The notes below the pieces were generated by a model, which did not search any database, was not told where the DNA came from, and saw only the letters and a program-made list of their open reading frames with translations. Below, one piece after another: positions 45,895-63,760 of a DNA stretch of 64,000 bases. Numbering within the stretch: position 1 is the stretch's first letter; the number at the start of each line of letters is the position of its first letter. Source of the DNA: a virus (lineage: Duplodnaviria; Caudoviricetes); the IMG/VR virus record IMGVR_UViG_3300037501_000111, positions 224,001-288,000 of that record; one strand, given 5' to 3'. The translations under genes were made by a program, and so were the position numbers.

Positions 45895-45983
45895 AAAATC
45901 AATGAATATGCCAAGGGCGCAGCGCACTTACCCTGTTGGCTCCCATTCACGGGCTGCACTTACCCAGGATTGGAGGTTGAACG

Positions 45984-46448
45984 ATGAACAAGAGCCAGGT
46001 TTCCGCCATCCTTGCCCGAGATCCGTACGCCGTGACCAAGGCGATCGTGCTTCTCTTCTCCTACCAGACGGTGGGGGAGCGTCGCACATCGACCACGGTG
46101 GAGGACAACGGGGTCGGTTTCAACGCAGTGCACGCCAAGAACGCCTCTTACTGGGCGAGGTGGGTGCTCGGGGTCGGACTGAACACCCCAGCCCACATCG
46201 TGGACGACAAGGTGCGACACTACCTGACCGGCGACAACTGCCGACAGTACCGCACTCTCACCGGCTCCTACCTGGTGGAGGCACGTCGGGTGGCCGCCCA
46301 CTACTGGCGACAACTCGCCGCAGCGGCCAAGGCTAAGGCTAAGGCAAAGCTCGTGCCAATCGTCGAGCACCGCGGCACCGACATGTCGCACATGCTGCGA
46401 CAGTTCGACCGCTTCCAGGTCCACCCCGGCATCACGCAGCATGTCTGA
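45984..46448 (+). CDS. Conserved phage hypothetical protein
   Basis: GGAGG RBS; strong G/C third-position bias; AIxxLxxxQTxxE...T...NGVGF motif. Confidence 0.75.
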   Translation: MNKSQVSAILARDPYAVTKAIVLLFSYQTVGERRTSTTVEDNGVGFNAVHAKNASYWARWVLGVGLNTPAHIVDDKVRHYLTGDNCRQYRTLTGSYLVEARRVAAHYWRQLAAAAKAKAKAKLVPIVEHRGTDMSHMLRQFDRFQVHPGITQHV

Positions 46449-46460
46449 CATGTAGGTTGA

Positions 46461-46495
46461 AAGGGGAGGGTGGCGCTAGCCACCCTCCCCTTCTT
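46461..46495 (+). terminator. Terminator-like hairpin
   Basis: Perfect 14 bp stem AAGGGGAGGGTGGC-GCTA-GCCACCCTCCCCTT. Confidence 0.7.
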
Positions 46496-46505
46496 ACGTT
46501 GTGGG

Positions 46506-46521
46506 CGGCATAGCCATTGCA
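46506..46521 (+). promoter_or_regulatory. Sigma54-like promoter motif
   Basis: CGGCATAGCCATTGCA followed by GGGTGCA. Confidence 0.6.
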
Positions 46522-46633
46522 GGGTGCAAAGCATGTGCCAGGCAAGTTTGCCCCACGTAAACCGCCGCCTCCCATTCACTGCCAGTCCAGACCGAGAAGC
46601 GTCCACACCAACCCGAACGCAGGAGCCACCGCC

Positions 46634-47260
46634 ATGGGTCTCGCTGACATCATCGCGCTCGTTTCGTCTGCTCACGTCGACCCCACCATCGCGCCCGAGA
46701 TTGACGACTCGCCCGAGATCGTCGAGACGGTTATCGGCCGCAATCTCCCCAAGCCTGTGCGAGGCAAGAAGCAGGTCGCTTCCATTCACGACGGCCCCAA
46801 GGTGTTCGGCGTGACCCTGCCCGAACGCAACACGCTGGACGCCAAGAGCTTCCTTCTCGCTGTTCGCAACGCGGGCAAGCGGCCCAACGCCAAGGGAGCC
46901 ATGGTCTTCGACAAGGCCCACGAGCGCAACGATCTCATCTGTGCTATCCACGCTTACGTTGGGTACGATACCCGACGTGATTTCGGCCCGCAGGACACCG
47001 AGGCGCGGGCCAAGGCCCAGCGCGAGCTGAGGGACGGTGTCACCCCTGGTCCCACCAGGGAGGAGAAGCGGAGTGCAGAGCGTAGCCTGTCGGGCTACGT
47101 GGCTGGCATGCCGCGCCCGGCTCAGAAGCTCCTCGCCAATCTCAGGGCTAGGGAGCAAGCGGCAGCCGAGGCGATGATCGACGCCAAGACCCCGGAGGAG
47201 AAGGTAACATACAAGCACCTCCTCGACACCATTCGTAAGGCCATCGACGAGTTGGTCTGA
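46634..47260 (+). CDS. Hypothetical early protein (208 aa)
   Basis: AGGAG RBS before MGLADII; GC3-rich. Confidence 0.75.
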   Translation: MGLADIIALVSSAHVDPTIAPEIDDSPEIVETVIGRNLPKPVRGKKQVASIHDGPKVFGVTLPERNTLDAKSFLLAVRNAGKRPNAKGAMVFDKAHERNDLICAIHAYVGYDTRRDFGPQDTEARAKAQRELRDGVTPGPTREEKRSAERSLSGYVAGMPRPAQKLLANLRAREQAAAEAMIDAKTPEEKVTYKHLLDTIRKAIDELV

Positions 47261-47280
47261 CCCACATAAGGCTCACATCC

Positions 47281-47329
47281 CGAAGGGCTCACACCTGGCG
47301 GGGTGTGGGCCTTTCGCTTTTTCTTTTTT
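47281..47329 (+). terminator. Rho-independent terminator
   Basis: CGAAGGGCTCACACC...GGTGTGGGCCTTTCG followed by a T tract. Confidence 0.8.
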
Positions 47330-47350
47330 CGCGATGTAGGGAAAAGTGGT

Positions 47351-47366
47351 TGGCATAGCCATTGCA
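47351..47366 (+). promoter_or_regulatory. Sigma54-like promoter motif
   Basis: TGGCATAGCCATTGCA followed by GGGTGCA. Confidence 0.65.
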
Positions 47367-47582
47367 GGGTGCATATGCGCGAGAAGAGGCGCCTTCCATT
47401 CACTGGCAATCGGAGTCGAAAGGTGCAGCAACGGACGGCAGCAAGGCAAGCAAGCCAGCGCACTAGGCGCAAGTCGTTCGCTACTGTATGCGACCACACA
47501 CGGCAGCAAGGTTCATACCAGGGGCTTGACCCCAAGTCGTGAATAGGCGCCTCCCATTCACCGCCAGACAGCGAGGTTGAGC

Positions 47583-47753
47583 ATGACAGCGAACGAAGCG
47601 TACGAACGAGGGAAAGCGGACGCCAGGCGTGAGAAGGCGCCCCTCTTCCGCTGCACTCGCCATGGGTACGAGCCCACGGTCGATGATGACATGGCGGATA
47701 ACTGGACGCAAGAAGATCGTTTCCACTACGTCCAGGGTTACGACCACGGCTAG
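47583..47753 (+). CDS. Small protein (56 aa)
   Basis: Manual translation MTANEAYERGKADARREKAP...FHYVQGYDHG; GAGG RBS; follows the motif at 47551. Confidence 0.6.
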   Translation: MTANEAYERGKADARREKAPLFRCTRHGYEPTVDDDMADNWTQEDRFHYVQGYDHG

Positions 47754-47934
47754 CGCCGGTCCTACGAACAACGGTTGAGCCAAGCGGCTCCCATTCACGA
47801 CGAAATCGAGTGCGGAAGTTGCAATCGCCCCTCACGGCAGCAGGCACCAACGGTGCGGCACCATCGAGTGCAAGTCGAGAGGGGCGGTTGCCTCCCATTC
47901 ACAACGAACGTCACCACAACGAAGGAGCATCATC

Positions 47935-48120
47935 ATGAAAAACGTCGATCTCTCGGTCTCTGGCGACACCCTCGTCATCAAGGTCAGCCTCAAGGCGCCC
48001 CGCACGGCCAGCGCCTCTGGCAAGTCGGATGTCATCGCCTCCACGGAGGGGAACGTCAGCATCCCCGGCTTCCCCAACATCAAGCTCGGTCTCAATTGCT
48101 ACACCCCTAAGGGCAAGTAA
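47935..48120 (+). CDS. Small conserved protein, paralogue of 52837..53013
   Basis: AAGGAG RBS; SxSGKSxxIASTEGN...IKLGLN. Confidence 0.8.
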   Translation: MKNVDLSVSGDTLVIKVSLKAPRTASASGKSDVIASTEGNVSIPGFPNIKLGLNCYTPKGK

Positions 48121-48357
48121 CGCCCTTCGGCCAGCTAGTCGCCCCGTGCAATCCCGAGTCTTCTGTCAGGCTCAAAAGGGACACGGGGCGACTAGCCTAG
48201 TTTCTGTTTCTCCAGCGTCACCAAAAGCGCACGGGGCTACGTGCGGCCTTCCAAGGTTTGAGTGACATAAGGGTTCGACTCCCTATGAATCTGTAGCATC
48301 CCGGCCCGTAGCCTTCCATTCACGGAGGCACGGGCTTGAGGTGTTGGAGGTACAACG

Positions 48358-48618
48358 ATGCGCAAGCCTTTCGACATGGCCAACAAGTACGAGTACGGCT
48401 CATACCATGACGACGAACCCACCATCAAAACGCAGGTGCCTGCGTTTCTCCCCAAGGTCATCGTGGATGATGATGCGGAAGACGACGAGCCCACGCTGCC
48501 TAGCTTGCGCAATCCCTTCCACGAAGAGAAGCGCTATCCTGGGATCGGTCTGCTGATCGTCCTGTTCAGCGGAGCACTCTTTTGGGGTGCGGTCTTGTGG
48601 TTCTTCGTCTGGCACTGA
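48358..48618 (+). CDS. Small protein with a C-terminal TM helix
   Basis: GGAGG RBS; duplicated DDEPT(I/L) motif. Confidence 0.65.
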   Translation: MRKPFDMANKYEYGSYHDDEPTIKTQVPAFLPKVIVDDDAEDDEPTLPSLRNPFHEEKRYPGIGLLIVLFSGALFWGAVLWFFVWH

Positions 48619-48807
48619 TGTGCCAAGGCGAGGTGTAGGTAAGAAGGCCACTGGTCAAGAGACCCTTGGCAAGATGCTCGTGTCCCGACATGGTGACATG
48701 TGCAAGCGCAGCGCTAATGCGCTGGAAAAGGTGAGTGCCGTCAAGAGCGCGACTCACAGGCTCCCATTCACTGATCATCGATAGCGAAAGACAACGGAGG
48801 TACGAAC

Positions 48808-49107
48808 ATGGCATATGGCATCTGGGACGTGAGCGGGAAGGTTCTGATTCCCGGCGCTCGTAAAAGCGCGAGCTTCGGTCCTGTCCGCATCGTGGACAAG
48901 GATCGGGCGACTGCCAGCCGGCATCTGGCCGCGCTGCTGAACGAGAAGTTCCGGCGGGACCTGAAAGGGGACCACCGCTTCTCGGCGGGGTACGCCCTGA
49001 TGAACCTGAAGTGGGAAGAGGTGTGCAAGAAGTCCGCCGCTCCCACGACCGCAACGGCGGTCCAGGTGTCGGAGCAGGTGCGTGCTCAGGAAGCAGCGGC
49101 CGAGTGA
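48808..49107 (+). CDS. Hypothetical early protein
   Basis: GGAGG RBS; follows the motif at 48761. Confidence 0.75.
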   Translation: MAYGIWDVSGKVLIPGARKSASFGPVRIVDKDRATASRHLAALLNEKFRRDLKGDHRFSAGYALMNLKWEEVCKKSAAPTTATAVQVSEQVRAQEAAAE

Positions 49108-49150
49108 AGCTCCCTGTTTTCCCATTCATCGCAACACGGAGGACAATGGC

Positions 49151-49369
49151 ATGAGCAACGTAACCGCCGAGCAAGTGACCGCTGGGATTCGCATGGCCGC
49201 AGCAGTGGGGGAAGCCATCCGTGATCTGGGTTCCGTTCCCAGCGGGCATCTGTATGCCAGACTGATGGGACATATGAGCCCGGAGACCTACAACAAGGTC
49301 ATCTCCCTACTGGTCAAGGTGGGTGCGGTCAAAGAGGAGAACCATCTCCTGACATGGGTGGGGAAGTAA
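49151..49369 (+). CDS. Small winged-helix-like hypothetical protein
   Basis: GGAGG RBS; AVGEAIRDLGSVPSGHLYARLMG. Confidence 0.65.
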   Translation: MSNVTAEQVTAGIRMAAAVGEAIRDLGSVPSGHLYARLMGHMSPETYNKVISLLVKVGAVKEENHLLTWVGK

Positions 49370-49464
49370 CAGTCCCATGTTTCGCACGTACGATGATTGG
49401 AAACTTGCTACTCCCCCAGAATACGAGTTTCTTGAGCCGGAGCCTGGGGAGGAAGAAGAAACAC

Positions 49465-49698
49465 ATGAAAACACTGATCCTACTGATGGGTATCCTAACC
49501 CTGATGTGGATGTGCAACTACACGACCCAAAGCCATCCTGACGACTGCTCGGGGACTCAGTGTACCTGGGATTACGGTACCAGGGAGGGGAGTGTGTGCT
49601 GCCCCGAGTCGGCTCCATACTGCGGTAGGGAAGGTACCTCTTGCCCAAAAGGACAATGTTGTGCTAGTCCTGGGGTCAATCTGGACCCGTTGAGGTGA
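49465..49698 (+). CDS. Cys-rich secreted peptide
   Basis: Hydrophobic signal followed by CSGTQC...CCPESAPYCG...CPKGQCC. Confidence 0.6.
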   Translation: MKTLILLMGILTLMWMCNYTTQSHPDDCSGTQCTWDYGTREGSVCCPESAPYCGREGTSCPKGQCCASPGVNLDPLR

Positions 49699-50031
49699 AA
49701 CAAGGTGGCCCTTCGGGGCCATCTCTGTTGAGCAAGGTGGCATCGCTATTACAGGGTACAATGGGCGTGCCAGCGAGTTCAAATGGTCGAAAACTCACCG
49801 TCGCCACGTGCCCAAGTCGGAACCTCGGAAACGGGGAAGGCGTCAACGCGAGCACAGTGCTCGCTCCCATTCACGGGGCCGAGGAATTCAACCCCGATCT
49901 AATTGGTCTCCTATCTGGTGGAGCCCATGAATCCGGCTCATTTTTTACCCCGACCGCACTTACCGCAGCGCCAAAACACCGCAGCAGTAGGGCGTTTGCA
50001 TACATGTAGCATATATGTAGGGAAAGGTAGT

Positions 50032-50047
50032 TGGCATGGTTATGGCA
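50032..50047 (+). promoter_or_regulatory. Sigma54-like promoter motif
   Basis: TGGCATGGTTATGGCA followed by GGGTGCA; upstream ATGTAGGGAAA is shared with the 47351 copy. Confidence 0.5.
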
Positions 50048-50278
50048 GGGTGCAAACGGCGAGCCAACGATACGAACGCAAAAACCGGGCCAAGCGGCCT
50101 CCCATTCACGGCGCATCGCCAGCGAAGGTCGCCGCACCGCAAACGACGCAACGCAAGGTGCAGACATACAGACACGGACCATGTGAGTGGGTATGAGCAA
50201 GAGGGACGGGCTCCCATTCACGGCAAACCGGGCGCCGAAAGCGCCGCAACCCACACACTGACAAGAGGGAAGAAAACA

Positions 50279-50476
50279 ATGGGCAAGATTCTGGTCATCA
50301 TTCTGGCAACGTGTGCGTGTCTCTGGCTGGCCTTCATGCTGGTCGGAACGCGACTGACTAACACGGCCTTCAACGTGCCTGGTACCGAACACACACCCGC
50401 CTTCGGTGTCACCTGGACCATCATCCTGGGCGCGGGGGTGGGGTACGTCATCTATCGCATCGTCAAGGGCAAGTAA
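50279..50476 (+). CDS. Small two-TM membrane protein
   Basis: MGKILVIILATCACLWLAFMLVG...TIILGAGVGYVIYRIVKGK. Confidence 0.7.
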   Translation: MGKILVIILATCACLWLAFMLVGTRLTNTAFNVPGTEHTPAFGVTWTIILGAGVGYVIYRIVKGK

Positions 50477-50489
50477 GAACTAACAAGTT

Positions 50490-50950
50490 TGGGAGCCGAA
50501 AGGTGGACCGTCCACTCTACCAGCTAACGAGAGGCGCAATGCTGATGGGCCATGAGGTATTGGCTTACTGCTGGCGGCTCCCATTCATTGCTACAAATTC
50601 CCAAGGTGGGGCGGTTGAGGAAAGCTGACTCCCCGCCCCAAACAATCCTATAAATTATACTGGGAAGTTCTCGTCAGCATACCTGTCAAAAGCCGAAGGT
50701 GTACTGCTAGCCAGGTGACATGACTCACCTGCGATCTTTTCGACCAAAGGGTAGGAACAATACAGGCTAGGTAGCTACTTCGGTAGTCCAACTGTATGCC
50801 CCAAGGTATAGGCTGATCTCTACCGATTGAGCGGGGTAGGAGACAGGGCAGGTATGCTGACGAGAGCTGGCTAGTCCAGCATAGCTGGAATCCTTTCAGG
50901 CTAGTCCAGCATAGCTGGAATCCTTTCAGGCTAGTCCAGCTGTACCACCA
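50490..50950 (+). ncRNA. Candidate structured non-coding RNA(s)
   Basis: No credible ORF; multiple helices, including an 18 bp long-range pair 50670-50687 / 50847-50864 and a UUCG hairpin. Strand is inferred from the neighbouring genes. Confidence 0.5.
50869..50940 (+). repeat. 30 nt tandem repeat, 2.4 copies
   Basis: GGCTAGTCCAGCATAGCTGGAATCCTTTCA x2 plus GGCTAGTCCAGC; no spacers. Confidence 0.95.
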
Positions 50951-51012
50951 TCCTAGAGATACCTGCGAGGCCTCTATGGAATCCAGACCGAATTACTTAC
51001 AATTCCGAACTG

Positions 51013-51047
51013 GATCTCGACAACACGTAGGGGGATCTAATAGGGGG
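51013..51047. repeat. Second copy of the GATCTCGACAA-N5-AGGGGGATCTA-(A)TAGGGGG element
   Basis: Matches 31880-31913. Confidence 0.85.
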
Positions 51048-51069
51048 TATAGCAGATATACTCCGGAAG

Positions 51070-51276
51070 TTGGGGGATGTGGTAAGCCTGGGCTGGGATG
51101 ACGGCTATCACACGGTCACGGTCTCTCAGGTTCACAAGGACGGGACGGTGGATGTCTTCCGTCCCTACACGGCCACGGCTGACTTTTCATGTGCAGGGCG
51201 AGAGGAGGGATCTTCCTCAGTCATCTGCTACGTGGGAATCGAAGAGGTCAAGGGAACACCGGGTCATGAAGTGTAA
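51070..51276 (+). CDS. Short hypothetical ORF or gene fragment
   Basis: TTG start; VFRPYTATADFS...VICYVGIE; may be N-terminally truncated. Confidence 0.4.
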   Translation: MGDVVSLGWDDGYHTVTVSQVHKDGTVDVFRPYTATADFSCAGREEGSSSVICYVGIEEVKGTPGHEV

Positions 51277-51446
51277 GCAGAGGCTCCCATTCACGGCAAC
51301 CCGAACGCAACGAACGACCAACATAGAACTCGGATTCTGGTTTGGTTTCATTACACTTCGTACAAGTAATCATGCGCAAGATGCAATAGTATGCCCATCT
51401 TGCGCAGAGAAAAACTCCCATTCACGGCATACGGGAAGCGAAAACC

Positions 51447-52079
51447 ATGAGCGATTCCAAAAAGCCGCGAGCCATGACTCCAAAGGGCTTCCTTGCCAAA
51501 GCGACCAGCACCTCGGCTTCCAGCTCTGCCATGGGTTTCTTGAGGCAGTACCGTGAGTATCTCACCACGGGAGAGGTGGCTGAGAAGACCAGCCCCATCA
51601 TCGCCAAGTACGAAGCTGGCGAGCTTCCTGCTTCTCCGGCTCTCAAAGAGATCCAGTATGCCGTGATGACTCACATCATCAAGGCAGAAGAGGACAAGCT
51701 GAATGCTCCCGCTGCCACTGGTGGCGGAGGCGGGACTCGTAAGCCCTGGCGTTGCACGGTCTACGATGCGGCTGGCAATGTCATGAGCCGAACCAACGCC
51801 AAGGGTGAGGTGGAGGATCTCGTCAAGGGGTTCGATCTCTCTCAGAGGGCCAGCGAGTGGGGCGACCGACGACTCTTCGAGGGGACTCACGGCTGGTATG
51901 CCATCGTGGAGCACACCACCATTCCCAACATCTCCAGCCGAATTGAGCGAGGGGATGCGGTGGCACGCATTCTGAAGCAGCCCAAGGGTCCGGTGGTCCA
52001 GGTCAAGAGCAAGAGCACCAAGGCGATCGGCTTTGGAGTCAAAGTCAAGGAAAGCCGGTCCAGTTTCTCCCGAGGCTAA
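51447..52079 (+). CDS. Hypothetical early protein (210 aa)
   Basis: GC3-rich ORF following the motif at 51415. Confidence 0.75.
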   Translation: MSDSKKPRAMTPKGFLAKATSTSASSSAMGFLRQYREYLTTGEVAEKTSPIIAKYEAGELPASPALKEIQYAVMTHIIKAEEDKLNAPAATGGGGGTRKPWRCTVYDAAGNVMSRTNAKGEVEDLVKGFDLSQRASEWGDRRLFEGTHGWYAIVEHTTIPNISSRIERGDAVARILKQPKGPVVQVKSKSTKAIGFGVKVKESRSSFSRG

Positions 52080-52239
52080 CAAGTCAAGCCCAACCACACA
52101 TAGCAGGAGTGGATTGCAGCCTTAGCTGGTCTAACTATCTGAGACTTTAGTGTCGAGTGGTGGGCGAAAGTCTTGGGGCGAGACTATAAAGCGCCCCAAT
52201 TTCTTCGCTCCCATTCACGACTAGCTCGGCGGTAAAGCC

Positions 52240-52701
52240 ATGACGAAGCGAGCATACGACAAGGTTCCTGTCTATAGCCTGCAAGTTGTCAAGGAGCGTA
52301 CTCTCAAGTACCCTGCTGACAAGGTGCCTCACCACATGGCAGCCGCAGCGGTCTTTCAAGCCTACCTGGAAGACAAGGCTTGTGAGCACTTGGCAATCCT
52401 TCTGTTGGATGGGCAATCCAAGATGATTGGAATTGCCACCATCACCATCGGTGGGCTGGATCGCCTGTCTTGCTCAGTCCGAAGTGTCTTTGAGCACGTC
52501 ATTGGTGGGCGGGCTCATGGCTTCATCCTGGGACATAACCATCCCAGCGGTAATGTCCAACCTTCTCCTGAGGATCTGGTTTTCACTCAGAGGGTGATGG
52601 AGGCTAGCGAAATCATTGGGGTTCCCATGCTGGACCACATCATCATCTCGTCTAGCACCAATCGGGACTCTTTGTCTTTCTTGGACAAGGGTTTGTTGTA
52701 A
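52240..52701 (+). CDS. RadC-like JAB domain protein
   Basis: EHLAILLLD, SVRSVF, HNHPSGNVQPSPED, MLDHIII. Confidence 0.9.
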   Translation: MTKRAYDKVPVYSLQVVKERTLKYPADKVPHHMAAAAVFQAYLEDKACEHLAILLLDGQSKMIGIATITIGGLDRLSCSVRSVFEHVIGGRAHGFILGHNHPSGNVQPSPEDLVFTQRVMEASEIIGVPMLDHIIISSSTNRDSLSFLDKGLL

Positions 52702-52836
52702 GGCGGGACGCCTTCGGTAGTTCCCATTCACGGCACATCGCAAACGAAGCTCGGCCCGCTCCCGTCGTCAGATGGGGCGGGCTTGAGGCATTGAAAGAAA
52801 GGGAGCTGTTGCTCCCCATAACACAGGAGCAAAACA

Positions 52837-53430: not shown

Positions 53431-53438
53431 AGAGAACG

Positions 53439-56885: not shown

Positions 56886-57063
56886 TCTCATCTACCTCGC
56901 ATCCTATACTGCCAAAGACATCAAGTTTTTGCGATGGTTGACGATTGCTGGCATCATCCTTCTGATTCCCTACTACCTGTATACTATGGTCTTTAGGAAG
57001 CAACCGCCTCCAAAGAGTCACATACAGATGGTATCTTTTGGCAAGATCCATCTGGTCATCTAG
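56854..57063 (+). CDS. Small membrane protein resembling the Popeye-domain N-terminal TM segment
   Basis: ANLIYLASYTAKDIKFLRWLTIAGIILLIPYY. Confidence 0.5.
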   Translation: MLYHLLINTANLIYLASYTAKDIKFLRWLTIAGIILLIPYYLYTMVFRKQPPPKSHIQMVSFGKIHLVI

Positions 57064-57141
57064 TCCATATTTCTGGATGGTACAACCGAGTCCAAATCAG
57101 CAATCGCTATGACACTCTCTGGTCTTACGCTCAAAATTGAG

Positions 57142-57282
57142 ATGTCCAAGAAGAAGAAGAAGAAACACGAGCCGCCTAAAAAGCATCGTAAGTACATTCT
57201 CATTGAGGGGTATGTACTCAATGAAAAAACTGGTGAGTTGGAACCATACTATAAAAAAGTATATCCTAAACACAAGGTATAG
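57142..57282 (+). CDS. Small Lys-rich protein (46 aa)
   Basis: Manual translation MSKKKKKKHEPPKKHRKYILIEGYVLNEKTGELEPYYKKVYPKHKV. Confidence 0.45.
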   Translation: MSKKKKKKHEPPKKHRKYILIEGYVLNEKTGELEPYYKKVYPKHKV

Positions 57283-57317
57283 CGGCTCCCATTCACCGCA
57301 CGTCGGGAGCAACCGTC

Positions 57318-57599
57318 ATGAGCGAACTACGAAGGAGCACTATCAGACGTCTCCGAGAAGAACGAAATGAGCTTCAAAAGAGAGTCTACGCTCTCAATGA
57401 CTCTATCAAAGAGTTGCAACTACTAGAAGACAAGGAACAACATCCTTGTACATGTGTAAAGCTCAATGGTGACATTGAGATTTATAACATGCAAGAACAA
57501 GAGCGACGTGGAAGGGTTCCTTTGGACTTAGGATTGGTCTCAGAGTGCCTAAGTGCTCGTAAAGACTGCCCTATCTGTAAGGGAACTGGCAAGCCATGA
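57318..57599 (+). CDS. Coiled-coil plus zinc-finger hypothetical protein
   Basis: GGGAG RBS; CTC...CPICKGTG. Confidence 0.65.
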   Translation: MSELRRSTIRRLREERNELQKRVYALNDSIKELQLLEDKEQHPCTCVKLNGDIEIYNMQEQERRGRVPLDLGLVSECLSARKDCPICKGTGKP

Positions 57600-58183
57600 A
57601 TCATTGGTTTATCAGCGATACCCACTTTGGGCATGCGAACATCATCAAATATTCCAATCGTCCTTTCAAGGATGTGGATGAGATGAATGAGTTGATGATC
57701 CAAGAGTGGAACAAGTTGGTCAAGCCAAATGATGCGGTCTACCATAACGGTGACTTTGCATTCATGACTTTCGACAAGTTTCGCCTGATGCATCGGCGCC
57801 TCAATGGAGATATCTATCTCCAGCTTGGTAATCATGACAAGATGATTATCCAGCATAAGACGGATCTTCTCAAGCAAGGGAAGATTGTCAGCATCGAAAA
57901 CTACCGCGAGTTGAAGATAGGTGGTCACATGATCGTCCTCTTTCACTACGGTCAAAGAGTGTGGAACAAGTCGCATCACGGAAGTATCCATCTCTATGGA
58001 CATTCCCACGGTTCATTGCCACCATTTGGCAAGTCAGTAGATGCCGGTGTAGACTGCAAAGAGATCACTCACGAGTATCGGCCGATTCACTTGGACGAAG
58101 TACTCAAGTACATGTCTAAGCGAGAACAATCAGTAGTCGATCATCACGGTACTCGTGACGAAATGGGCAGCAAGGAAGACTGA
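57596..58183 (+). CDS. Calcineurin-like metallophosphoesterase
   Basis: SDTHFGH, GDF, GNHD, LFHY, GHSH. Confidence 0.9.
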   Translation: MNHWFISDTHFGHANIIKYSNRPFKDVDEMNELMIQEWNKLVKPNDAVYHNGDFAFMTFDKFRLMHRRLNGDIYLQLGNHDKMIIQHKTDLLKQGKIVSIENYRELKIGGHMIVLFHYGQRVWNKSHHGSIHLYGHSHGSLPPFGKSVDAGVDCKEITHEYRPIHLDEVLKYMSKREQSVVDHHGTRDEMGSKED

Positions 58184-58184
58184 G

Positions 58185-58391
58185 ATGACTCATTCCGACT
58201 TCAAGATTGGCGAAACATTCTTCACATCCAATGGATGGCAATGGTTGTGTACCGACAAGGGAACACGAGTGATTGTTGCCGTCCATATAGAAGAAGGACG
58301 TGACCCATCTTGGTTGAGCGGGCCTCCTTACGCAGTAGCTGAGGTGGTATTCGATGAGCACGACTTCTCTTCCTGCACCCAAACGCCATAA
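58185..58391 (+). CDS. Conserved hypothetical protein
   Basis: MTHSDFKIG...WLCTDKGTR...WLSGPPYAVAEVVFDEHD. Confidence 0.7.
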   Translation: MTHSDFKIGETFFTSNGWQWLCTDKGTRVIVAVHIEEGRDPSWLSGPPYAVAEVVFDEHDFSSCTQTP

Positions 58392-58426
58392 AAACAAACC
58401 TAATCTCAACCTGTGCCGGTCATTCC

Positions 58427-58674
58427 ATGAGTAACGTTCTCAAAATCGAAAACCATAAGTCAATTCTGAGTGCTTCTCGAATCGTTTGGTCAGAAGGCTG
58501 CGCCCCATGCGTGTGGTTCTTCGTGATAACGGTGGAGAATTCGTTACTCATCTGGAAGTTTTGGACTTGGAGGATGGTACTTTCAAGCACAGCGATTTTC
58601 TACATGGTCACTACTTCGGCAAAGATGGTAATAAGGCTATGGCCGATTACCAAGAGCGCCGGGCGAAGCTGTAG
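58427..58674 (+). pseudogene. Hypothetical protein split by one apparent indel
   Basis: Adding one T at 58485-58487 joins MSNVLK...SRIV to LVRRLRPMRVVLRDNGGEFVTH...AKL. Confidence 0.5.
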
Positions 58675-58707
58675 GCTCCCATTCACGGTTCGCGGTTGGA
58701 GGGCGGC

Positions 58708-59535
58708 ATGAGCAAGTTTCTTCTGACTGACTGGGAAATCAATGGGTACGATGACTCTGACTTCATGGCATCGTACTATGATGATAAGACCAATACCATC
58801 GGATTCACCTGCTACGGCAGTACCCGATATCCATCTGCTACTGTTATCGGTCATAACACCGATGGTTCTACTTCGGTAGTGGTGGATGGTGAGAATCTTC
58901 TCATGCCCAACTCTGATACGGTTGAGAAGGCTCGTTTGGTTCTGGAAGAAAACATCTTTCAACGTCTCACTAAGACTGACAAGCGCTTGGTGGATGAACC
59001 TGATGTGGAGGATCTCTCTAAGGGCCTTCGTGTTCGGCTGACTGCCAATGCTCGTATGCAGGTTCGCGCTCTGGAGCCTTGCAATAAGTGCAATGGTTCT
59101 GGTAAATGGGTCAATCCTCGACGAGAGACTGACATTCGTGACTGTTTCTCTTGTGGTGGTTCTGGTCAGCACAAGGGCGCCAAGGTCAAAGGCGAGGATG
59201 GTAAGCAGGCTTACGAGACTCTGCCTGCCGGACTTACAGGTACCGTGGTGGATTGGAACAGCTTCGGCCAGTTCTACGCTTCGGGCTATAACAAGCCCAA
59301 TCGACACAACACTACAGTTCAGTTCCGTACAGACCATGGCAAGGTAGTCCGGGCTAGTCTGTCCAAGTTGCGGCTGGATCGCGACTATCAACCTGCTGAG
59401 TCCCTTCGTGAGAGAGCTAAGAAGCTCTCTTTCGATTATCAGTTCAGCGCTCTGTATCCTCGTTTTGCGTGGGATACTCGGAACTATGCGATGCAGGTAG
59501 CAAAAAAACATGAGAACCAGATTCATTCTGCCTAA
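58708..59535 (+). CDS. Hypothetical protein with a DnaJ-type zinc finger
   Basis: CNKCNGSG...CFSCGGSG; GGAGG RBS. Confidence 0.75.
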   Translation: MSKFLLTDWEINGYDDSDFMASYYDDKTNTIGFTCYGSTRYPSATVIGHNTDGSTSVVVDGENLLMPNSDTVEKARLVLEENIFQRLTKTDKRLVDEPDVEDLSKGLRVRLTANARMQVRALEPCNKCNGSGKWVNPRRETDIRDCFSCGGSGQHKGAKVKGEDGKQAYETLPAGLTGTVVDWNSFGQFYASGYNKPNRHNTTVQFRTDHGKVVRASLSKLRLDRDYQPAESLRERAKKLSFDYQFSALYPRFAWDTRNYAMQVAKKHENQIHSA

Positions 59536-59737
59536 TGGTAAGACAACAATTTCATCCAAAACGTATCTTACGGCTTGGAGAAAGTTGTATCGTCCTATCG
59601 AAAAGGCGACCGATTCCAAGTGCTTTGGGTTTGACCCTGGATTATCTTTCGTAACGGAAGATGGCAAGTACGTTTGGGGTCTAGGGAAATATGAAGCAAT
59701 TCGCCTTAGTGAAGCTCTTCAGCTAAGACGCGGCTAA
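59510..59737 (+). CDS. Hypothetical protein
   Basis: 75 aa ORF overlapping the upstream gene. Confidence 0.55.
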   Translation: MRTRFILPNGKTTISSKTYLTAWRKLYRPIEKATDSKCFGFDPGLSFVTEDGKYVWGLGKYEAIRLSEALQLRRG

Positions 59738-59752
59738 ATCTGTAGGGTTGTC

Positions 59753-60469
59753 ATGAAGTTCGATCTTTCCAAGACGTTCGATGTTACCAAGATTACTCAC
59801 AAAAGCCGTATCCTGGTGGGTGCGGTTCAGGTCAACAAGCCCTTCATCTACCACGATGCCAGTTACGAATGTGCGGCGTGGTGGGAAGATCGTGAAGCTC
59901 AGACTGGAGTGTATCCGGTCTATCTTTCTCGAAGATATCACCACCCCAAGCATCTGACCATCACGGCTCACATCAAGGCTAAAGTGGTGGACGATTACTT
60001 TCCTGGCCTCTGGGGAGGTATACCCTACAAGCCCAAGCACATTGGGGAGGAGCGAATCATTCGCCAGGGTATCGAGGTGGTGGATGCCATCGAACGGACT
60101 GGCAACTCTCCGGGTAGTGACCTGGATTGGTTCATCCACCCTTCGTGGTGGAAGGTGTTCACGGATGAGGCTGAGGCCGAGCTTCGTGAGAACTACCGCA
60201 GACTGTCGGAATTCTGGAACGAGTGGAATAATCTCGACCCCCAGACCTTCAAGGCAAAGATGGATGGTCGCTGGGAATTTGATGATGAGTTTCGTTCCAA
60301 GATTGGAATGATTGCTCACTTCGGAGGTCACTTGGAAAAGTGGGCACGTCGAATCGAGAAGATTAACTGGTGCTCTCAGTATCACAAAGTGGGTGGAAAG
60401 TACGATACGGAGTATCAGCGCAACAACTTCGCTCAGAATACTGAGTGGACTAAGGCACTCGAAATCTAA
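59753..60469 (+). CDS. Hypothetical protein (238 aa)
   Basis: Long ORF with consistent codon bias. Confidence 0.7.
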   Translation: MKFDLSKTFDVTKITHKSRILVGAVQVNKPFIYHDASYECAAWWEDREAQTGVYPVYLSRRYHHPKHLTITAHIKAKVVDDYFPGLWGGIPYKPKHIGEERIIRQGIEVVDAIERTGNSPGSDLDWFIHPSWWKVFTDEAEAELRENYRRLSEFWNEWNNLDPQTFKAKMDGRWEFDDEFRSKIGMIAHFGGHLEKWARRIEKINWCSQYHKVGGKYDTEYQRNNFAQNTEWTKALEI

Positions 60470-60477
60470 GCATACAC

Positions 60478-60720
60478 ATGAAAGCATACATTTTCCTGAA
60501 GGATGGTCAGAAAGAGGAACAACTTCTCGCCAAAGTGGAGAATTTGGAAGTTGTTCCTTGTGGTATCTATGTTATTGATGGTGTAGAGTACCAGTACACC
60601 GGGCAACCCACCTTCATCATCGAGAAGACCCCTTATCTATATGGTGGTAAACATCAATTGACTAGGGTGGAATTCTCTGTGGAGAAGGTTGGAGAGGTCA
60701 AGCGACAAGGCGACATGTAA
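60478..60720 (+). CDS. Hypothetical protein
   Basis: 80 aa co-oriented ORF. Confidence 0.55.
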   Translation: MKAYIFLKDGQKEEQLLAKVENLEVVPCGIYVIDGVEYQYTGQPTFIIEKTPYLYGGKHQLTRVEFSVEKVGEVKRQGDM

Positions 60721-60878
60721 GGTGCGTGAATTCTTCATTGTATTCAGTGTATTGATGGCATTATTTACATGGTGGTGTGGCTGGACAGGCCAACCTCGTA
60801 AAACATGCGGCCTCAACATGCTGAATACTTTGCTCAGCTTGGAACTTATTAGAGTGTACGGAGAGAAAGAAAAAGACA

Positions 60879-61070
60879 ATGGGTGATAAAGTCAAGGGCT
60901 GGCATAGTCGTAAACCTAAGAAGCACGGACAGTATTCCGAAAAGAAGAATCGTCCATTGCGCCCTGATCAAGACAAACGTAATCCCTCAAAGGATTCACG
61001 TGGAGATTACAGAAATGGCCGTTATGTTCAGTGGGATTCGGACGAGCGCGAGTACGATTTCGGAGACTAG
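60879..61070 (+). CDS. Small basic hypothetical protein
   Basis: 63 aa; GGAG upstream. Confidence 0.5.
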   Translation: MGDKVKGWHSRKPKKHGQYSEKKNRPLRPDQDKRNPSKDSRGDYRNGRYVQWDSDEREYDFGD

Positions 61071-61305
61071 CCATAATGAAAGACGCAATTTGGGTCTTCA
61101 AGTCTTTCGGTTTTAGGTCCGGAATACTCTTTGTCCTTGGTTCCATCGGTACGAAAATCAGGCGCCTTTTCGTCTGATGAAGAGGCTCGGCAAGTCGCCG
61201 CCCAGTTTGGCATTTTTCCTGGACAAACCAGGCATATACTGAACTATCAATTCAACGAAGAAAACGAAAACAGAACGTTACACTAGTCTCAACAAAGGAA
61301 ATAAC

Positions 61306-61614
61306 ATGCGATTCACAACGATCAGCGGTTCGATTTACGAGGTGGATCGAAAGAACAAGAAGATTCGACGCCTCAATGGCAATGCCGATCCTACCCCTCG
61401 TCAGGGCAAAGATGGTGAGTGGCGTGGTTATCTCAACGAGCTTCACATTGAAGTTGGTCAGCCTGTCGTTATTGCATGGGCCGATGCTCATCAACTAACA
61501 GAGGAAACCATGTCTCTTCTTGGAATCTCCGAGAAGGAAGCACCTCCTCCTATGCCTGGTAGAACTACTTTCACTTCCCGAGTGGTAGAGATCGACGACA
61601 AAGTTTACCACTAA
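61306..61614 (+). CDS. Conserved phage hypothetical protein
   Basis: AAGGA RBS; FTTxSGSIYEVD...IRR...TPR...TSxV motif. Confidence 0.7.
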   Translation: MRFTTISGSIYEVDRKNKKIRRLNGNADPTPRQGKDGEWRGYLNELHIEVGQPVVIAWADAHQLTEETMSLLGISEKEAPPPMPGRTTFTSRVVEIDDKVYH

Positions 61615-61870
61615 TCAGTATTGGGATATAATCCCATAAGGTTAGGAAAGTGTTTCGTGTATATGGTGCGCCAACAAGGAAAAATAATAGTCTCATTCAC
61701 TATGTTTGTGGATGCATGGCTCTATGTGTTCTTGGAACTAGAATCGTATGCACGGATTGTTGGGCCAGAGGGTATCTGGATAATCAATCCTGGTAAACAC
61801 TCGGTAAACTAAAAGACTTAGCCGCTACATAATCTGCGGGTATTCGAAAATTCCGCTGACACTGTAACGG

Positions 61871-62065
61871 CTCCCATTCACGGCAACCGCTAGCCGATTG
61901 CCGTGAATCGCTTACGAAAACGGGGCACACGAGCCCCATTGAATGACGGAGCTAAATCTCCTCAGAGAGATGACGTAACGGCAGACGATGCCGGCTCCTA
62001 ACTACCTCGTCTCATGACGAGGCAATCTTTTCTTACAATGCGACGAGTAACGTAGATGTGATGAA
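61871..62065 (+). ncRNA. Candidate structured non-coding RNA
   Basis: Chain of hairpins including a perfect 11 bp ATTCACGGCAA/TTGCCGTGAAT; no ORF. Confidence 0.45.
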
Positions 62066-62069
62066 ATCC

Positions 62070-62450
62070 TTACCAATAATGGAGATCGTCTTCATACTCT
62101 AATACATCATTATATCTTTGTCCTTTGGGTTGGTTCACAACCCTTAGTTCAAGATTGATAAGTCTGTTATCAGACTTATCACCATTGATATGATGTATGT
62201 TTTCGGAGGGTAGAAGTTTTCTCCCTAAATGTTGCTCCATTACATAACGGTGTTCATAATACTGTTGTCCGTTTACATAAATACGTCTATATCCACTAGA
62301 CATTTTGTAGCCGGATCCTTTGGGGCCAATAGTTTTGGTTTCAATATTTATGACAGTTGTACCATCATCTAGCATTCTGTCATAATGTGATTGGCAATAA
62401 CCTTTAGCGTGGTGAGGTCTTTCACAATTTTCTACTTTACAAAGGCGCAT
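62070..62450 (-). CDS. HNH endonuclease with an N-terminal zinc finger
   Basis: CKVENCERPHHAKGYCQSHY; YEHRYVMEQHLGR...IHHINGDKSDNRLINLEL; AGGAG RBS. Confidence 0.9.
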   Translation of the reverse strand: MRLCKVENCERPHHAKGYCQSHYDRMLDDGTTVINIETKTIGPKGSGYKMSSGYRRIYVNGQQYYEHRYVMEQHLGRKLLPSENIHHINGDKSDNRLINLELRVVNQPKGQRYNDVLEYEDDLHYW

Positions 62451-62558
62451 TATCTTCTCCTGTTAGTAATATAACAGGGCCAATCGTTAGCTAGCGGGCA
62501 GAAGTTTCTTCTTCCGGGATAGTGTACGATATGTCTCGTCAAAAAAGGAATACACAAC

Positions 62559-62978
62559 ATGAGCACTTCTCTCGATATCACGGTCACGCTCGTCCAGACG
62601 GACGGCCGAATCGACCTTGACCAGTCCACGGCGGCCTTCCGTTCGGCGGCTCTCAAGCGCCAGGCGGAGCTGGAGACCGAGAAGACCGAGATCGCTGCGG
62701 CGGTTTCGGCCATCTTCGACCAGCACTACGGCAAGTCCATCCCGATGCCGACCCTCGGCTCGATGGTGGCGCAGGCCCTCAACGCTCAGCCGGAGAACTT
62801 CGCTGTTCTCAGCGAGCGTGCCCTCAACTACGTTCGTGAGAACAGCCAGGGCGAGGTTAAGGATGGTGTCGAGGAGCGTCCCAATTCGCTCTTCGTCATC
62901 AGCAAGGGTAAGGGCGGCGGCTGCGGTCGTCGTGCGGACCTTCCGGTCAAGCCGGCCAAGGGCAGCAAGACGGTCTGA
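62559..62978 (+). CDS. Hypothetical early protein, paralogue of 54130..54576
   Basis: AAGGA RBS; highly GC3-rich; DGxxDL, IFDQ, KGKGGG motifs. Confidence 0.8.
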   Translation: MSTSLDITVTLVQTDGRIDLDQSTAAFRSAALKRQAELETEKTEIAAAVSAIFDQHYGKSIPMPTLGSMVAQALNAQPENFAVLSERALNYVRENSQGEVKDGVEERPNSLFVISKGKGGGCGRRADLPVKPAKGSKTV

Positions 62979-62997
62979 GCGTCTCGGAACATGAGCG

Positions 62998-63024
62998 AGG
63001 GGCTAGCAATCCTAGCCCCTTTCT
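62998..63024 (+). terminator. Terminator-like hairpin
   Basis: AGGGGCTAG-CAATC-CTAGCCCCT-TTCT. Confidence 0.6.
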
Positions 63025-63112
63025 CGTAAGCTGTTAGTGCGATAGCTATTCAATCTAACCGCTTCAAAGGTCGTCAAATTCTGAACGAAACAATCAAGAC
63101 CAAAGAGACAAC

Positions 63113-63454
63113 ATGAGCCAGCACAACAAGAAGCAGTTTCACAAGCAGGAGCGCAAGGTGACTCAGGAGTTCAAGAGAGAGCAGATCGAGCAGATCGAGC
63201 TGGGCGAGGAGGACAAGTGGCACCCGACTCCCGAGAAATTCGCTGCTTATCAGCTTCGTGATGTTGCTCAGTGTGAGAGTAACCTTCGGCTCATTCTGGC
63301 CGGCCGTTCTGGCCTGACACTCAAGGAGCTGAAGGATTCAACGCTCCACACGGCCCAGACGGTCGAGTCTCAGGTGAGTACTTGGCTGAAGTCTGGCTAC
63401 CTGGTGGAGAGCAAGGGGCGTCTCAGCTTCAACCCATCTTACCAGGGTCGCTGA
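63113..63454 (+). CDS. Hypothetical protein with a possible C-terminal winged helix
   Basis: GLTLKELK...VESQVSTWLKSGYLVESKGRL. Confidence 0.65.
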   Translation: MSQHNKKQFHKQERKVTQEFKREQIEQIELGEEDKWHPTPEKFAAYQLRDVAQCESNLRLILAGRSGLTLKELKDSTLHTAQTVESQVSTWLKSGYLVESKGRLSFNPSYQGR

Positions 63455-63727
63455 ATGTTTCCTTCTCCGAAGGAACTGGATGTCCAGTCCAAAATTCAAT
63501 TGGATGGCTGGGTTGATCTGGATTCGGAGAGATGGCGTGAGACTGATAATGATCCATCCTTGACCAAGAAGTGGTTGAGAATGCTGATGCAGGAGCCCGC
63601 CTATCTCTTTACGGATGCAGATGGCCGAGTATGGGGCAAGGGGGAAGACGGACATTACTATCCTTACCATTATGAATATGGTAAGAAGAAGTACGGAATT
63701 CGTCTTCCAAAGAAAGCGGCGAACTAA
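63455..63727 (+). CDS. Hypothetical protein
   Basis: Starts directly after the upstream stop. Confidence 0.6.
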   Translation: MFPSPKELDVQSKIQLDGWVDLDSERWRETDNDPSLTKKWLRMLMQEPAYLFTDADGRVWGKGEDGHYYPYHYEYGKKKYGIRLPKKAAN

Positions 63728-63760
63728 CCGGCTTTCATTCACGGGACAACGAGAAACGCA

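Follow-up and report, generated by a model that had tools for sequence, protein, structure and literature searches.

The promoters of the T7/T3/SP6 group, read by single-subunit RNA polymerases, span about 23 bp from −17 to +6, and the Syn5 promoter is short. Late promoters of T4 (TATAAATA) are read by gp55 together with gp33 and the gp45 clamp. At the RNA level, the T4 sites of RegB (GGAG cleavage) and RegA (translational operator) overlap the Shine-Dalgarno (SD) sequence or the AUG and are 4–12 nt long and degenerate. In the phiKZ-like jumbo phage AR9, the early promoter AAATATATATTAT-N6-G(+1) is present in 41 copies and is used by an injected multisubunit virion RNA polymerase (PMC5312081). 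Promoter-early/stem-loop (PeSL) cassettes are found in hyperplastic regions of T4-type phages (PMC2839356, PMC4122927).

In an uncultured freshwater megaphage from IMG/VR and in its relatives, the 11-base word CTCCCATTCAC precedes most genes of one GC-rich block. It was the top over-represented 11-mer in the window, that is, the whole 64-kb stretch of DNA analysed, and in two related genomes. Exact copies (n = 18) occurred on the plus strand only, from 45940 to 61871, against 0.02 expected from shuffled sequences. By allowing one mismatch, the number rose by 5 to 23, again on the plus strand only, and two credible two-mismatch copies were present at 49119 (TTCCCATTCAT) and 63732 (CTTTCATTCAC). 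The resulting 25 plus-strand copies span 45940–63742 and agree with the 18 exact and 7 near-exact copies given in the preliminary description. Both strands were scanned, and the strict polarity and the lack of any full copy in the first 45.9 kb, both claimed earlier, held: every credible copy was on the plus strand, and positions 1–45939 contained none at 0 or 1 mismatch on either strand. A two-mismatch match at 61690 was left out of the count as chance-like because of its AT-rich surroundings. On our reading of the ORF map, 24 of the 25 copies lie between genes, in keeping with their description as nearly all intergenic; the exception, at 46779, lies within a 208-aa gene. All 14 ATG positions listed previously were present, each heading an ORF. 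The block, the motif copies and a 35-bp palindrome are given below.

45784–64000, plus strand: GC-rich co-oriented gene block, holding all motif copies and extending past the window end
45879–45913, unstranded: palindrome, left arm once read as a sigma54 site; starts 61 nt before copy 1
45940–45950, plus strand: motif copy 1, exact; ATG 45984 of a 154-aa gene; both flanks conserved in G001 and G002
46506–46540, unstranded: palindrome, 1 mismatch of 20; starts 63 nt before motif 46569
46569–46579, plus strand: exact copy; ATG 46634
46779–46789, plus strand: CTTCC variant within the 208-aa gene; in-frame GTG 46811 follows at 21 nt
47351–47385, unstranded: palindrome, right outer arm degenerate; starts 42 nt before motif 47393
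47393–47403, plus strand: CTTCC variant heading a non-coding block of about 150 nt, conserved in three genomes
47551–47561, plus strand: exact copy; ATG 47583 at 21 nt; imperfect complement GTGAATAGG 12 nt upstream
47788–47798, plus strand: exact copy heading a hairpin-rich non-coding segment of 93 nt
47892–47902, plus strand: exact copy; ATG 47935
48313–48323, plus strand: CTTCC variant; ATG 48358
48761–48771, plus strand: exact copy; ATG 48808; G001 homology begins 2 nt before the motif
49119–49129, plus strand: degenerate copy TTCCCATTCAT; ATG 49151 exactly 21 nt after
49738–49772, unstranded: palindrome, TTACA/TACAA variant
49864–49874, plus strand: exact copy followed by non-coding sequence
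50032–50066, unstranded: palindrome; starts 67 nt before motif 50099
50099–50109, plus strand: exact copy heading a non-coding segment of 101 nt
50211–50221, plus strand: exact copy; ATG 50279; complement GTGAGTGGG 28 nt upstream
50578–50588, plus strand: copy CTCCCATTCAT, marking the 5′ edge of a non-coding block of about 290 nt, 88% identical to G001
51284–51294, plus strand: exact copy followed by non-coding sequence
51415–51425, plus strand: exact copy; ATG 51447 at 21 nt
52208–52218, plus strand: exact copy right after a terminator-like hairpin; ATG 52240 (RadC-like gene) at 21 nt
52721–52731, plus strand: copy TTCCCATTCAC; G001 homology begins at the motif
54054–54064, plus strand: exact copy; ATG 54130
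54945–54955, plus strand: exact copy; ATG 55012; the CCCAT of the motif forms the closing strand of a tRNA T-arm-like hairpin, ATGGG-TTCGACT-CCCAT
56169–56179, plus strand: exact copy; ATG 56202
57286–57296, plus strand: exact copy; ATG 57318 at 21 nt
58676–58686, plus strand: exact copy; ATG 58708 at 21 nt
61871–61881, plus strand: exact copy; the 3′ half, together with GGCAA, pairs with TTGCCGTGAAT at 61898
63732–63742, plus strand: degenerate two-mismatch copy CTTTCATTCAC

The comparison set consisted of two related IMG/VR megaphage contigs, G001 and G002, and a more distant relative, G003; G002 is the sole relative rated complete by CheckV, the other two being partial. A jump in GC content from about 0.39 to 0.6 marks the start of the array in the window, G001 and G002 alike. 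Within the window the GC content of the block falls from 0.62 at its start to about 0.47, and both the jump and the decay recur in G001 (145 kb) and G002 (420 kb). Exact copies numbered 47 forward and 0 reverse in G001 and 48 and 0 in G002, all within one block along which the density decays (14, 13, 7, 7, 3... copies per 5 kb). At the site equivalent to 46779 both relatives carry an exact motif copy; the window has the CTTCC variant. G003 carries a different word, CCCATCGCCmAACGGynwGAA, in 21 co-oriented copies. The two words have in common a CCCAT core and a 21-nt mode to the start codon, with a +15 spacing seen once, and conservation in G003 extends 12 nt beyond the 9-mer, reaching within 9 nt of the ATG. 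A shared core and spacing with divergent letters is the pattern expected if the motif co-evolves with a phage-encoded reader, and judged from these genomes the motif is a lineage signal.

The logo of 140 copies reads ggCTCCCATTCAC-n-R-c, with nothing conserved upstream of −2 and a purine at the second base past the motif in 135 copies. An ATG follows at exactly 21 nt in 35 of the 140; shorter distances are rare and longer ones form a long tail, which is a minimal-leader pattern. The base at −1 of the ATG is C in 33 of 35 copies. An unstructured leader, as claimed before, was confirmed by the 58 nt 3′ of the motif, whose folding is less stable than that of control windows (p = 7e-5). The stop or hairpin said to come before the motif is occasional rather than a general rule: terminator-like hairpins lie directly 5′ of some copies (for example 52178–52207 and 47281–47316) and a clear case was also found at 46453, but the overall excess of upstream folding is weak (p = 0.02).

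From these features we infer, with moderate confidence, that the motif is a phage-specific promoter made of a single block and followed by a short standard leader. The GC-rich co-oriented block from 45.9 kb onwards would be expressed by a phage-specific programme using CTCCCATTCAC as its promoter, presumably early, given its position and gene content. A phage-supplied reader would recognise the single block with no −35-type partner element. Transcription would probably start at or just past the near-invariant purine two bases beyond the motif, giving a minimal mRNA leader of about 20 nt in which an SD sequence and a C precede the ATG. The signal may also drive a tRNA gene and several non-coding RNAs: in G002 a motif at 9040 precedes a tRNA-Leu gene at 9194, and non-coding blocks conserved across genomes are also preceded by the motif, one of them (50576–50867) at 88% identity. 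These placements count against a purely translational element.

Of the models put forward in the preliminary description, a promoter was thus the best supported, but the phage or virion RNA polymerase proposed to read it was undetected in G002 and the two partial relatives. Six-frame searches of G001–G003 gave no match to Pfam RNA_pol (PF00940) or Rpb2_6, the relatives' ORFs lacked the DxDGD motif and T7 motif B, and phmmer queries with T7 RNAP, N4 RNAPII and N4 vRNAP returned zero matches, as did T4 gp55. These reader searches were insensitive, as phmmer failed to link N4 RNAP2 to T7 RNAP. The only sigma factor found is encoded far from the block and, having both region 2 and region 4, would be expected to require a bipartite promoter. 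Candidate readers are a factor that confers specificity on the host RNA polymerase and a polymerase that has diverged beyond recognition. Other promoters must exist, since three motif-less plus-strand genes follow minus-strand genes (window 62559; G002 19946 and 34206). Sigma70-like matches numbered 24 against 15.3 ± 5 expected, an enrichment that was not significant.

The four copies reported to lie downstream of sigma54 starts called for another explanation. The supposed sites are single arms of a 35-bp element, TGGCA-N6-TTGCA-N3-TGCAA-N6-TGCCA, which is two-fold symmetric, matches on either strand and has been kept in four genomes; this suits an operator better than an asymmetric −24/−12 promoter. 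Neither a sigma54 nor an enhancer-binding protein is encoded by the phage. In 11 of some 24 cases the palindrome starts 61–72 nt before the motif, and in G003 the distances are 55 and 59 nt; the 61 nt to copy 1 is identical in G001 and G002. The palindrome looks more like an operator than a sigma54 promoter, and it may be a regulator site 26–37 bp upstream of the few promoters that open the block.

It is possible, if rather doubtful, that the motif acts in RNA instead, as a conserved 5′-leader element of long co-directional transcripts. A phage RNA-binding protein or sequence-specific endonuclease might bind or cut it, yielding standard-leader units from a polycistron, or it might serve as a translational operator for a global regulator with a logic like that of T4 RegA or RegB. 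The 21-nt and 15-nt spacings, kept in two lineages despite different letters, could reflect RNA–ribosome geometry rather than a promoter, and the C at −1 also counts for an RNA role. Conservation in G003 likewise enters what would be transcribed sequence, and the copy inside the 208-aa gene has an SD sequence and an in-frame GTG at +21. The undetected polymerase also favours an RNA role. G001 has an equivalent of the pairing at 61871, and so does G002 in other letters, the inner hairpin having changed; a helix on the 3′ half of the motif kept in three genomes suggests that the motif is transcribed there. Near-complements at about 47538–47540 and at 50183 lie inside non-coding segments and are conserved in G001. 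The local complements noted earlier (47540, 50183, 61898) are present, but at three loci only, two of which are not kept in G002, and the motif itself has no structure. About one in three window copies lacks an ORF within 100 nt, and these, with the copy before the tRNA, exclude a purely translational role and leave a processing role. A block of 60–100 kb would moreover need other promoters, and once the motif had been masked the block showed no enrichment of any other polar non-coding k-mer. One protein recognising 11–21 nt of single-stranded RNA is uncommon. The RNA model was further weakened on two of its premises, the sigma54 starts and the pairing of CUCC with the GGAG of the SD sequence: CUCC is missing from the G003 motif and lies outside the conserved core of the sister lineage, which begins at CCCAT.

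A recombination core that mainly shuffles gene cassettes, with secondary effects on expression, is quite improbable. PeSLs offer a precedent for repeated promoters as exchange points (PMC2839356, PMC4122927). Gene turnover is high: 18 kb between syntenic anchors in the window correspond to 38 kb in G001, most gaps holding extra motif-headed ORFs. Among 23 window copies, at least 6 show homology to G001 in the downstream flank and null-level scores in the upstream flank. Since coding sequence lies downstream and intergenic sequence upstream, however, asymmetric conservation is expected regardless. In the one example followed base by base, 48313 against G001 148005/148214, homology stops 17–28 nt before the motif and restarts at the ATG. 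Neither the pre-motif spacer nor the leader is related between the two, and no crossover in the motif is visible. Homology often begins at the motif, but junctions near rather than in it make a motif-linked process not demonstrable from these alignments, being indistinguishable from ordinary intergenic divergence. An identity of 11–15 bp is short for homologous exchange, and the +21 spacing, the purine at +2 and the sister-lineage motif of the same geometry would be left unexplained. A polar DNA signal with no expression role, such as Chi-like nuclease attenuation that guards the DNA end entering first, or a packaging or ejection signal, would fit the strict single-strand polarity and the density peak at one boundary followed by decay, but is scarcely to be expected, as such signals ignore reading frames and start codons, and here 24 of 25 copies are intergenic although the block is densely coding, and 35 of 140 stand at exactly 21 nt from an ATG.

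The relation of the motif to known systems may be depicted as follows. With PeSLs it shares a repeated promoter-like signal, sometimes preceded by a hairpin, among small variable ORFs with high gene turnover; PeSL promoters are sigma70-type, however, and here hairpins are occasional and junctions inside the motif were not seen. T4 RegA and RegB sites are likewise short RNA signals, found repeatedly at the initiation regions of numerous early genes, but the motif, at −32 to −22, shows almost no variation and stands before RNA genes as well. Promoters of the T7/T3/SP6 group resemble it in very high copy identity, divergence between related phages around a common core, initiation at a purine beside the block and a single orientation of all copies. 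They differ in that no T7-like polymerase was detected and in that the conserved block is 13–15 bp here and 21 bp in G003. T4 late promoters also need one short block and no −35 element, a small phage factor redirecting the host polymerase, and this type of redirection would be the most plausible model if a phage polymerase is absent; the differences are an undetected gp55 homologue and the usual 6–7 nt gap from −10 to the start, which would cut into the SD sequence with leaders of 15–21 nt. The AR9 early promoters are AT-rich, whereas the motif is C-rich in a block that is itself GC-rich within an AT-rich genome, and split beta/beta′ genes and the DxDGD motif were undetected here. Both the phiKZ-like and the present arrays consist of dozens of near-identical, co-oriented single-block motifs directly 5′ of genes that are early, or here presumably early, with no −35 partner, a conserved purine close downstream and some copies inside genes. 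A compact block abutting a purine is what likens the motif to phage-polymerase promoters such as the AR9 early promoter.

The 11-mer CTCCCATTCAC was the top over-represented 11-mer in the window, in which 18 exact copies were found at 45940-61881, exclusively on the plus strand, against 0.02 expected from dinucleotide-preserving shuffles of the 64-kb sequence. By allowing a single mismatch, another 5 copies were detected on the plus strand of the same stretch, and two credible two-mismatch copies were present at 49119 (TTCCCATTCAT, with an ATG 21 nt past its end) and 63732. The 18 exact and 7 near-exact plus-strand copies of the preliminary description were thereby reproduced, as was their absence from the first 45.9 kb, where a scan of both strands at 0-1 mismatch gave no hit. 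The start codons that it had named are genuine ORF starts on the ORF map.

A protein-seeded scan of IMG/VR identified three related megaphage contigs: G001 (a 209,766-bp fragment, 84% protein identity), G002 (480,838 bp, 100% complete by CheckV, 75% protein identity) and G003 (a 178,722-bp fragment, 60% protein identity), the last belonging to a more distant sister lineage. Near-identity DNA searches with both window halves found no match among GenBank phages. Exact copies of the motif numbered 47 forward and 0 reverse in G001 and 48 forward and 0 reverse in G002. Viral contigs searched for exact matches to GCTCCCATTCACGG gave mainly single chance matches, and among the matches listed only G001 and G002 held multiple copies. 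A literature search with the 11-mer returned nothing but unrelated eukaryotic primer matches. The runs matching 45900-55800 were freshwater DNA metagenomes, with no RNA run among those listed for this segment or for 47300-49200. The motif array in the window is real, highly significant and conserved within a freshwater megaphage lineage.

The array is contained in a GC-rich block of co-oriented genes, for which a GC jump and subsequent decay were noted over these regions:

Window, 45500-64000: GC-rich block
G001, 145-205 kb: GC-rich block
G002, 420-480 kb and 1-40 kb: GC-rich block
G003, ~10-33 kb: GC-rich block

At 45.9 kb the GC content of the window rose from ~0.39 to 0.62 and then decayed to ~0.47; a sharp step (0.39 to ~0.6) followed by a smooth fall over tens of kb was common to all relatives. 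The onset of the array coincided with the abrupt GC rise in G001 (145 kb) and G002 (420 kb). In G002 the array extended up to the contig end and restarted at 9, 17 and 38 kb, with a declining density per 5 kb (14, 13, 7, 7, 3, 2...). Since the GC jump, the decay and the array onset recur in G001 and G002, the composition switch is a conserved lineage feature. An assembly chimera or host flank was rejected as its cause because junction and gradient recur in contigs of other metagenomes and low-GC phage DNA flanks both sides in G002. GC-skew and terminal-repeat analyses of G002 were uninformative. Large tRNA arrays come after the block in G002 (41-80 kb), and one speculative idea is that early genes may fit the codon pool of a GC-rich host until the phage tRNAs appear.

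The window is phage-like in its gene content (release factor, GMP reductase, RadC-like protein, endonuclease VII/HNH and phosphoesterase), and the relatives' giant structural proteins, Baseplate-J among them, also mark it as such. The FCCH beta-barrel of ubiquitin-E1 (Pfam PF16190) was matched by structural-region proteins of 585, 1257 and 1555 aa (window 1073-6613 and 14231-18898). A class-I release factor with PCRF and RF-1 domains is encoded at 35716-36810, and among the 58 genes that ARAGORN listed for G002 there were a tmRNA (tag ANDNAFAMAA) and more than 50 tRNAs, at least two of them of suppressor type with anticodons TTA and CTA. Suppressor-type tRNAs together with a release factor hint at stop-codon manipulation, yet the long ORFs stay open in the normal way under code 11. 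G002 also encodes a lysyl-tRNA synthetase by Pfam (9632-11242) and a candidate DnaE-type Pol III alpha (207878-211534), the PDIDTDF motif of this protein being typical of that family. The GC-rich block is broken in the window by an AT-rich minus-strand insertion at 62000-62517 (ORFs 62070-62450 and 62450-62713), which is missing from the syntenic G001 site, where the gap is 89 nt, and is probably a mobile endonuclease-type element.

A logo built from 140 copies with 0-1 mismatch in three genomes read g-g-CTCCCATTCAC-n-R-c, a compact block devoid of dyad symmetry, with a purine at the second base past the motif in 135 copies and no information content at positions -30 to -3. Spacing to the start codon showed a sharp mode, the ATG lying exactly 21 nt past the motif end in 35 copies where ~2 were expected; few spacings were shorter (a handful at 15 nt) and a tail reached 70 nt and more. 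Leaders of the 21-nt class consisted of N-R-C, a purine-rich SD at +10 to +15 and C-ATG, the C at -1 being present in 33 of the 35. The folds of the leaders, previously described as unstructured, were indeed less stable than those of control windows (p = 7e-5). The stop and hairpin said to precede the motif were found before some copies, where the hairpins are terminator-like, but their enrichment was weak (p = 0.02). About one third of the window copies had no following ORF and instead headed non-coding segments, with conservation seen in several, and in G002 one copy was located 154 nt upstream of a tRNA-Leu. Another copy lies within a 208-aa gene at an equivalent location in all three genomes; in the window it is followed by an SD and an in-frame GTG at 21 nt.

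CTCCCATTCAC was absent from G003, whose GC-rich block harboured a variant:

G003, loci L054-L062, ~9.8-33.1 kb, minus strand: variant array of 21 copies of CCCATCGCC-m-AACGG-y-n-w-GAA

The copies were co-oriented, with 0 on the opposite strand of the block. The CCCAT core is the sole part common to the G003 and window motifs; upstream of it there was no conservation in G003, and downstream the conserved block left no more than 9 nt before the ATG. Measured from the end of the 9-mer starting with CCCAT, the spacing to the ATG again had its mode at 21 nt, and 15 nt occurred once. To judge from these sequences, a change of letters with core and geometry retained is the pattern expected for a phage-encoded co-evolving reader, that is, a polymerase or factor recognising the motif, and not for a host-defined sequence.

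Four copies of the motif had been placed downstream of sigma54 starts. The letters (GG-N10-GC) and spacing of sigma54 do fit, and such a promoter is conceivable, but each TGGCA-N6-TTGCA match near the block start forms one arm of a 35-bp sequence with two-fold symmetry, TGGCA-N6-TTGCA-N3-TGCAA-N6-TGCCA, in which both strands match, a symmetry unexpected for a sigma54 promoter. Neither Sigma54_activat nor Sigma54_DBD was found to be phage-encoded; the phage has no sigma54 or enhancer-binding ATPase of its own. The copies in the window are:

45809-45843: palindrome, weak copy
45879-45913: palindrome
46506-46540: palindrome
47351-47385: palindrome
49738-49772: palindrome
50032-50066: palindrome

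All four genomes, G003 included, carry 5-10 copies where the GC-rich block begins. The palindrome starts 61-72 nt upstream of a motif copy in 11 of ~24 cases, and its distance to the first motif copy is exactly 61 nt in three genomes; two copies in G003 are at 55 and 59 nt. It is not a hairpin, since the N6 segments are non-complementary, and looks like a DNA site bound by a protein dimer or tetramer, positioned ahead of the motif at a set distance.

A phage-specific promoter is the reading that we prefer, with moderate confidence. It is favoured because a compact invariant block adjoins a purine, has no partner element and stands before genes for proteins and RNAs and before a tRNA; because an operator-like site stands at a set upstream distance and terminator-like hairpins abut some copies; and because, with the motif masked, no other enriched polar signal was left in the block and the enrichment of sigma70-like matches was not significant, phage AR9 giving a strong precedent for such an array (PMC5312081). 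The preliminary description had named a phage or virion RNA polymerase as the reader, and this part of its promoter model found no counterpart, as no recognisable reader was detected in the searches of G001-G003. Six-frame searches with Pfam RNA_pol (PF00940), for which the positive control was unable to register, and with Rpb2_6 (PF00562), for which the control was positive in 14/14 genomes, gave no match in G001-G003. The motif B regex of T7 RNAP had 0 matches in ORFs of at least 250 aa, and a DxDGD-type metal site (D[FYW..]DGD) was absent from ORFs of at least 150 aa. Using phmmer, T7 RNAP, both N4 RNAPII subunits and N4 vRNAP retrieved nothing at E<=10, and T4 gp55 nothing at E<=1, a test of little power where evolution is fast; other T4 replication and transcription proteins retrieved nothing detectable. 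Such searches are insensitive for fast-evolving proteins, and phmmer failed to link even N4 RNAP2 to T7 RNAP. The one sigma70-family protein encoded has 209 aa, contains regions 2 and 4 and is far from the block; its architecture predicts a bipartite promoter, unlike the motif. Other candidates yielded no lead: a 715-aa motif-headed ORF of G002 is TerD-like by language-model neighbours, with no PDB sequence match; three giant proteins (1755, 1687 and 1507 aa) matched no Pfam, PHROG or PDB sequence; and the Atlas neighbours of the first two block genes were uninformative.

Rather doubtful, in our view, is that the motif acts at the RNA level as a leader or processing element. Three motif-headed conserved non-coding blocks are candidate small or structured RNAs:

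47393-47551 (non-coding block 47404-47550): conserved in three genomes, contains repeated ACGGCAGCAAGG
50576-50867 (non-coding block 50589-50870): 88% identity to G001, against 75-80% typical for coding blocks
61871 onward (non-coding block 61882-62030): conserved in relatives

At 61871 a helix containing the 3' half of the motif was kept in three genomes while the enclosed hairpin changed, and near-complements of the motif occur in two non-coding segments. Both observations point to RNA, as do the exact 21-nt spacing kept across two lineages and the closeness of the conserved G003 block to the ATG (9 nt or less). The helix and near-complements would, however, also fit a promoter if read-through from upstream copies matters, and the near-complements, described before as sequestering some copies, do exist but are confined to these two loci and not retained in G002. 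Rfam gave no gathering-level match across the window, its sole match at E<=1 in 45500-64000 being at chance level. Non-coding 50868-50950 holds ~2.5 tandem repeats of a ~30-bp unit, gctagtccagcatagctggaatcctttcag. The proposed pairing of CUCC with the GGAG ribosome-binding site is unsupported, and an anti-SD mimic as core function was rejected, since the G003 motif lacks CUCC; a purely translational role is excluded by the copies preceding RNA genes.

It is unlikely that these 200-480 kb freshwater megaphages express the GC-rich block by undescribed machinery, either a new factor or polymerase reading a 13-21 nt block or an RNA-level system. Under the former, a virion-delivered or very early reader would lack detectable T7-, N4-, multisubunit or gp55-type similarity; under the latter, the word would tag every leader and be the target of a phage protein or of anti-motif small RNAs encoded between tandem copies.

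Cassette shuffling at a PeSL-like recombination core was also considered as a model, PeSL-type cassettes serving for comparison (PMC2839356, PMC4122927), in genomes ~75-80% identical. The block is highly plastic, 18 kb of window corresponding to 38 kb of G001 with most gaps carrying extra motif-headed ORFs, and at least 6 window copies have a downstream flank homologous in G001 and an upstream flank that is not. This asymmetry is, however, expected because the downstream flanks are coding, and in the clearest presence/absence case homology stops 17-28 nt before the motif and returns at the ATG. Indel junctions fall near the motif, but not inside it in the single case followed base by base, a pattern that ordinary intergenic divergence could equally produce.

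T-arm-like hairpins were noticed at 48268-48290 (AGGG-TTCGACT-CCCT, upstream of the 48313 copy and conserved in G001) and at 54929-54949 (ATGGG-TTCGACT-CCCAT, its 3' strand being the CCCAT of motif copy 54945), both without a detectable full tRNA. Punctuation by tRNAs, with the motif as T-stem 3' strand plus acceptor, was rejected as a general explanation, as the window gave no tRNA with ARAGORN and a conserved partner strand is lacking upstream.

For uncultured megaphages, the motif would map ~50 transcription units per genome, and it sets off an expression module with sharp borders and a composition of its own. With the sister-lineage variant, the reader could be sought by co-variation. A reader of a new type, whether factor or polymerase, would represent a novel phage takeover of transcription and a compact orthogonal promoter/reader pair; an ordinary sigma-like factor would make the motif a useful annotation and no surprise.

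Among known systems, an integron attC array differs in that the motif has no dyad symmetry and the flanking genes at the array start are peptidases, with no recombinase-sized ORF there on the ORF map. A bipartite sigma70 promoter would have a -35/-10 pair ~17 bp apart, which is lacking, and a hypothetical -10 element downstream of the motif would collide with the SD or ATG in the 21-nt class. From the single-block late promoters of T4 the array differs by the lack of a detected gp55-like factor, and from the early promoters of the phiKZ/AR9 virion RNAP by the lack of detected split beta/beta' subunits or a DFDGD motif. No T7-family polymerase was detected either, in searches of limited sensitivity, but the array resembles T7-like RNAP promoters in its contiguous, uniform, co-oriented block next to a purine, a candidate start site by sequence. 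We would class the array with the phage-specific promoter arrays, a known kind of which the AR9 early promoters form a set of 41 (PMC5312081); its putative reader escaped detection, and it has unusual accompaniments: a GC-rich block with a gradient of GC and motif density, a 21-nt leader, a putative palindromic operator upstream and a sister variant.
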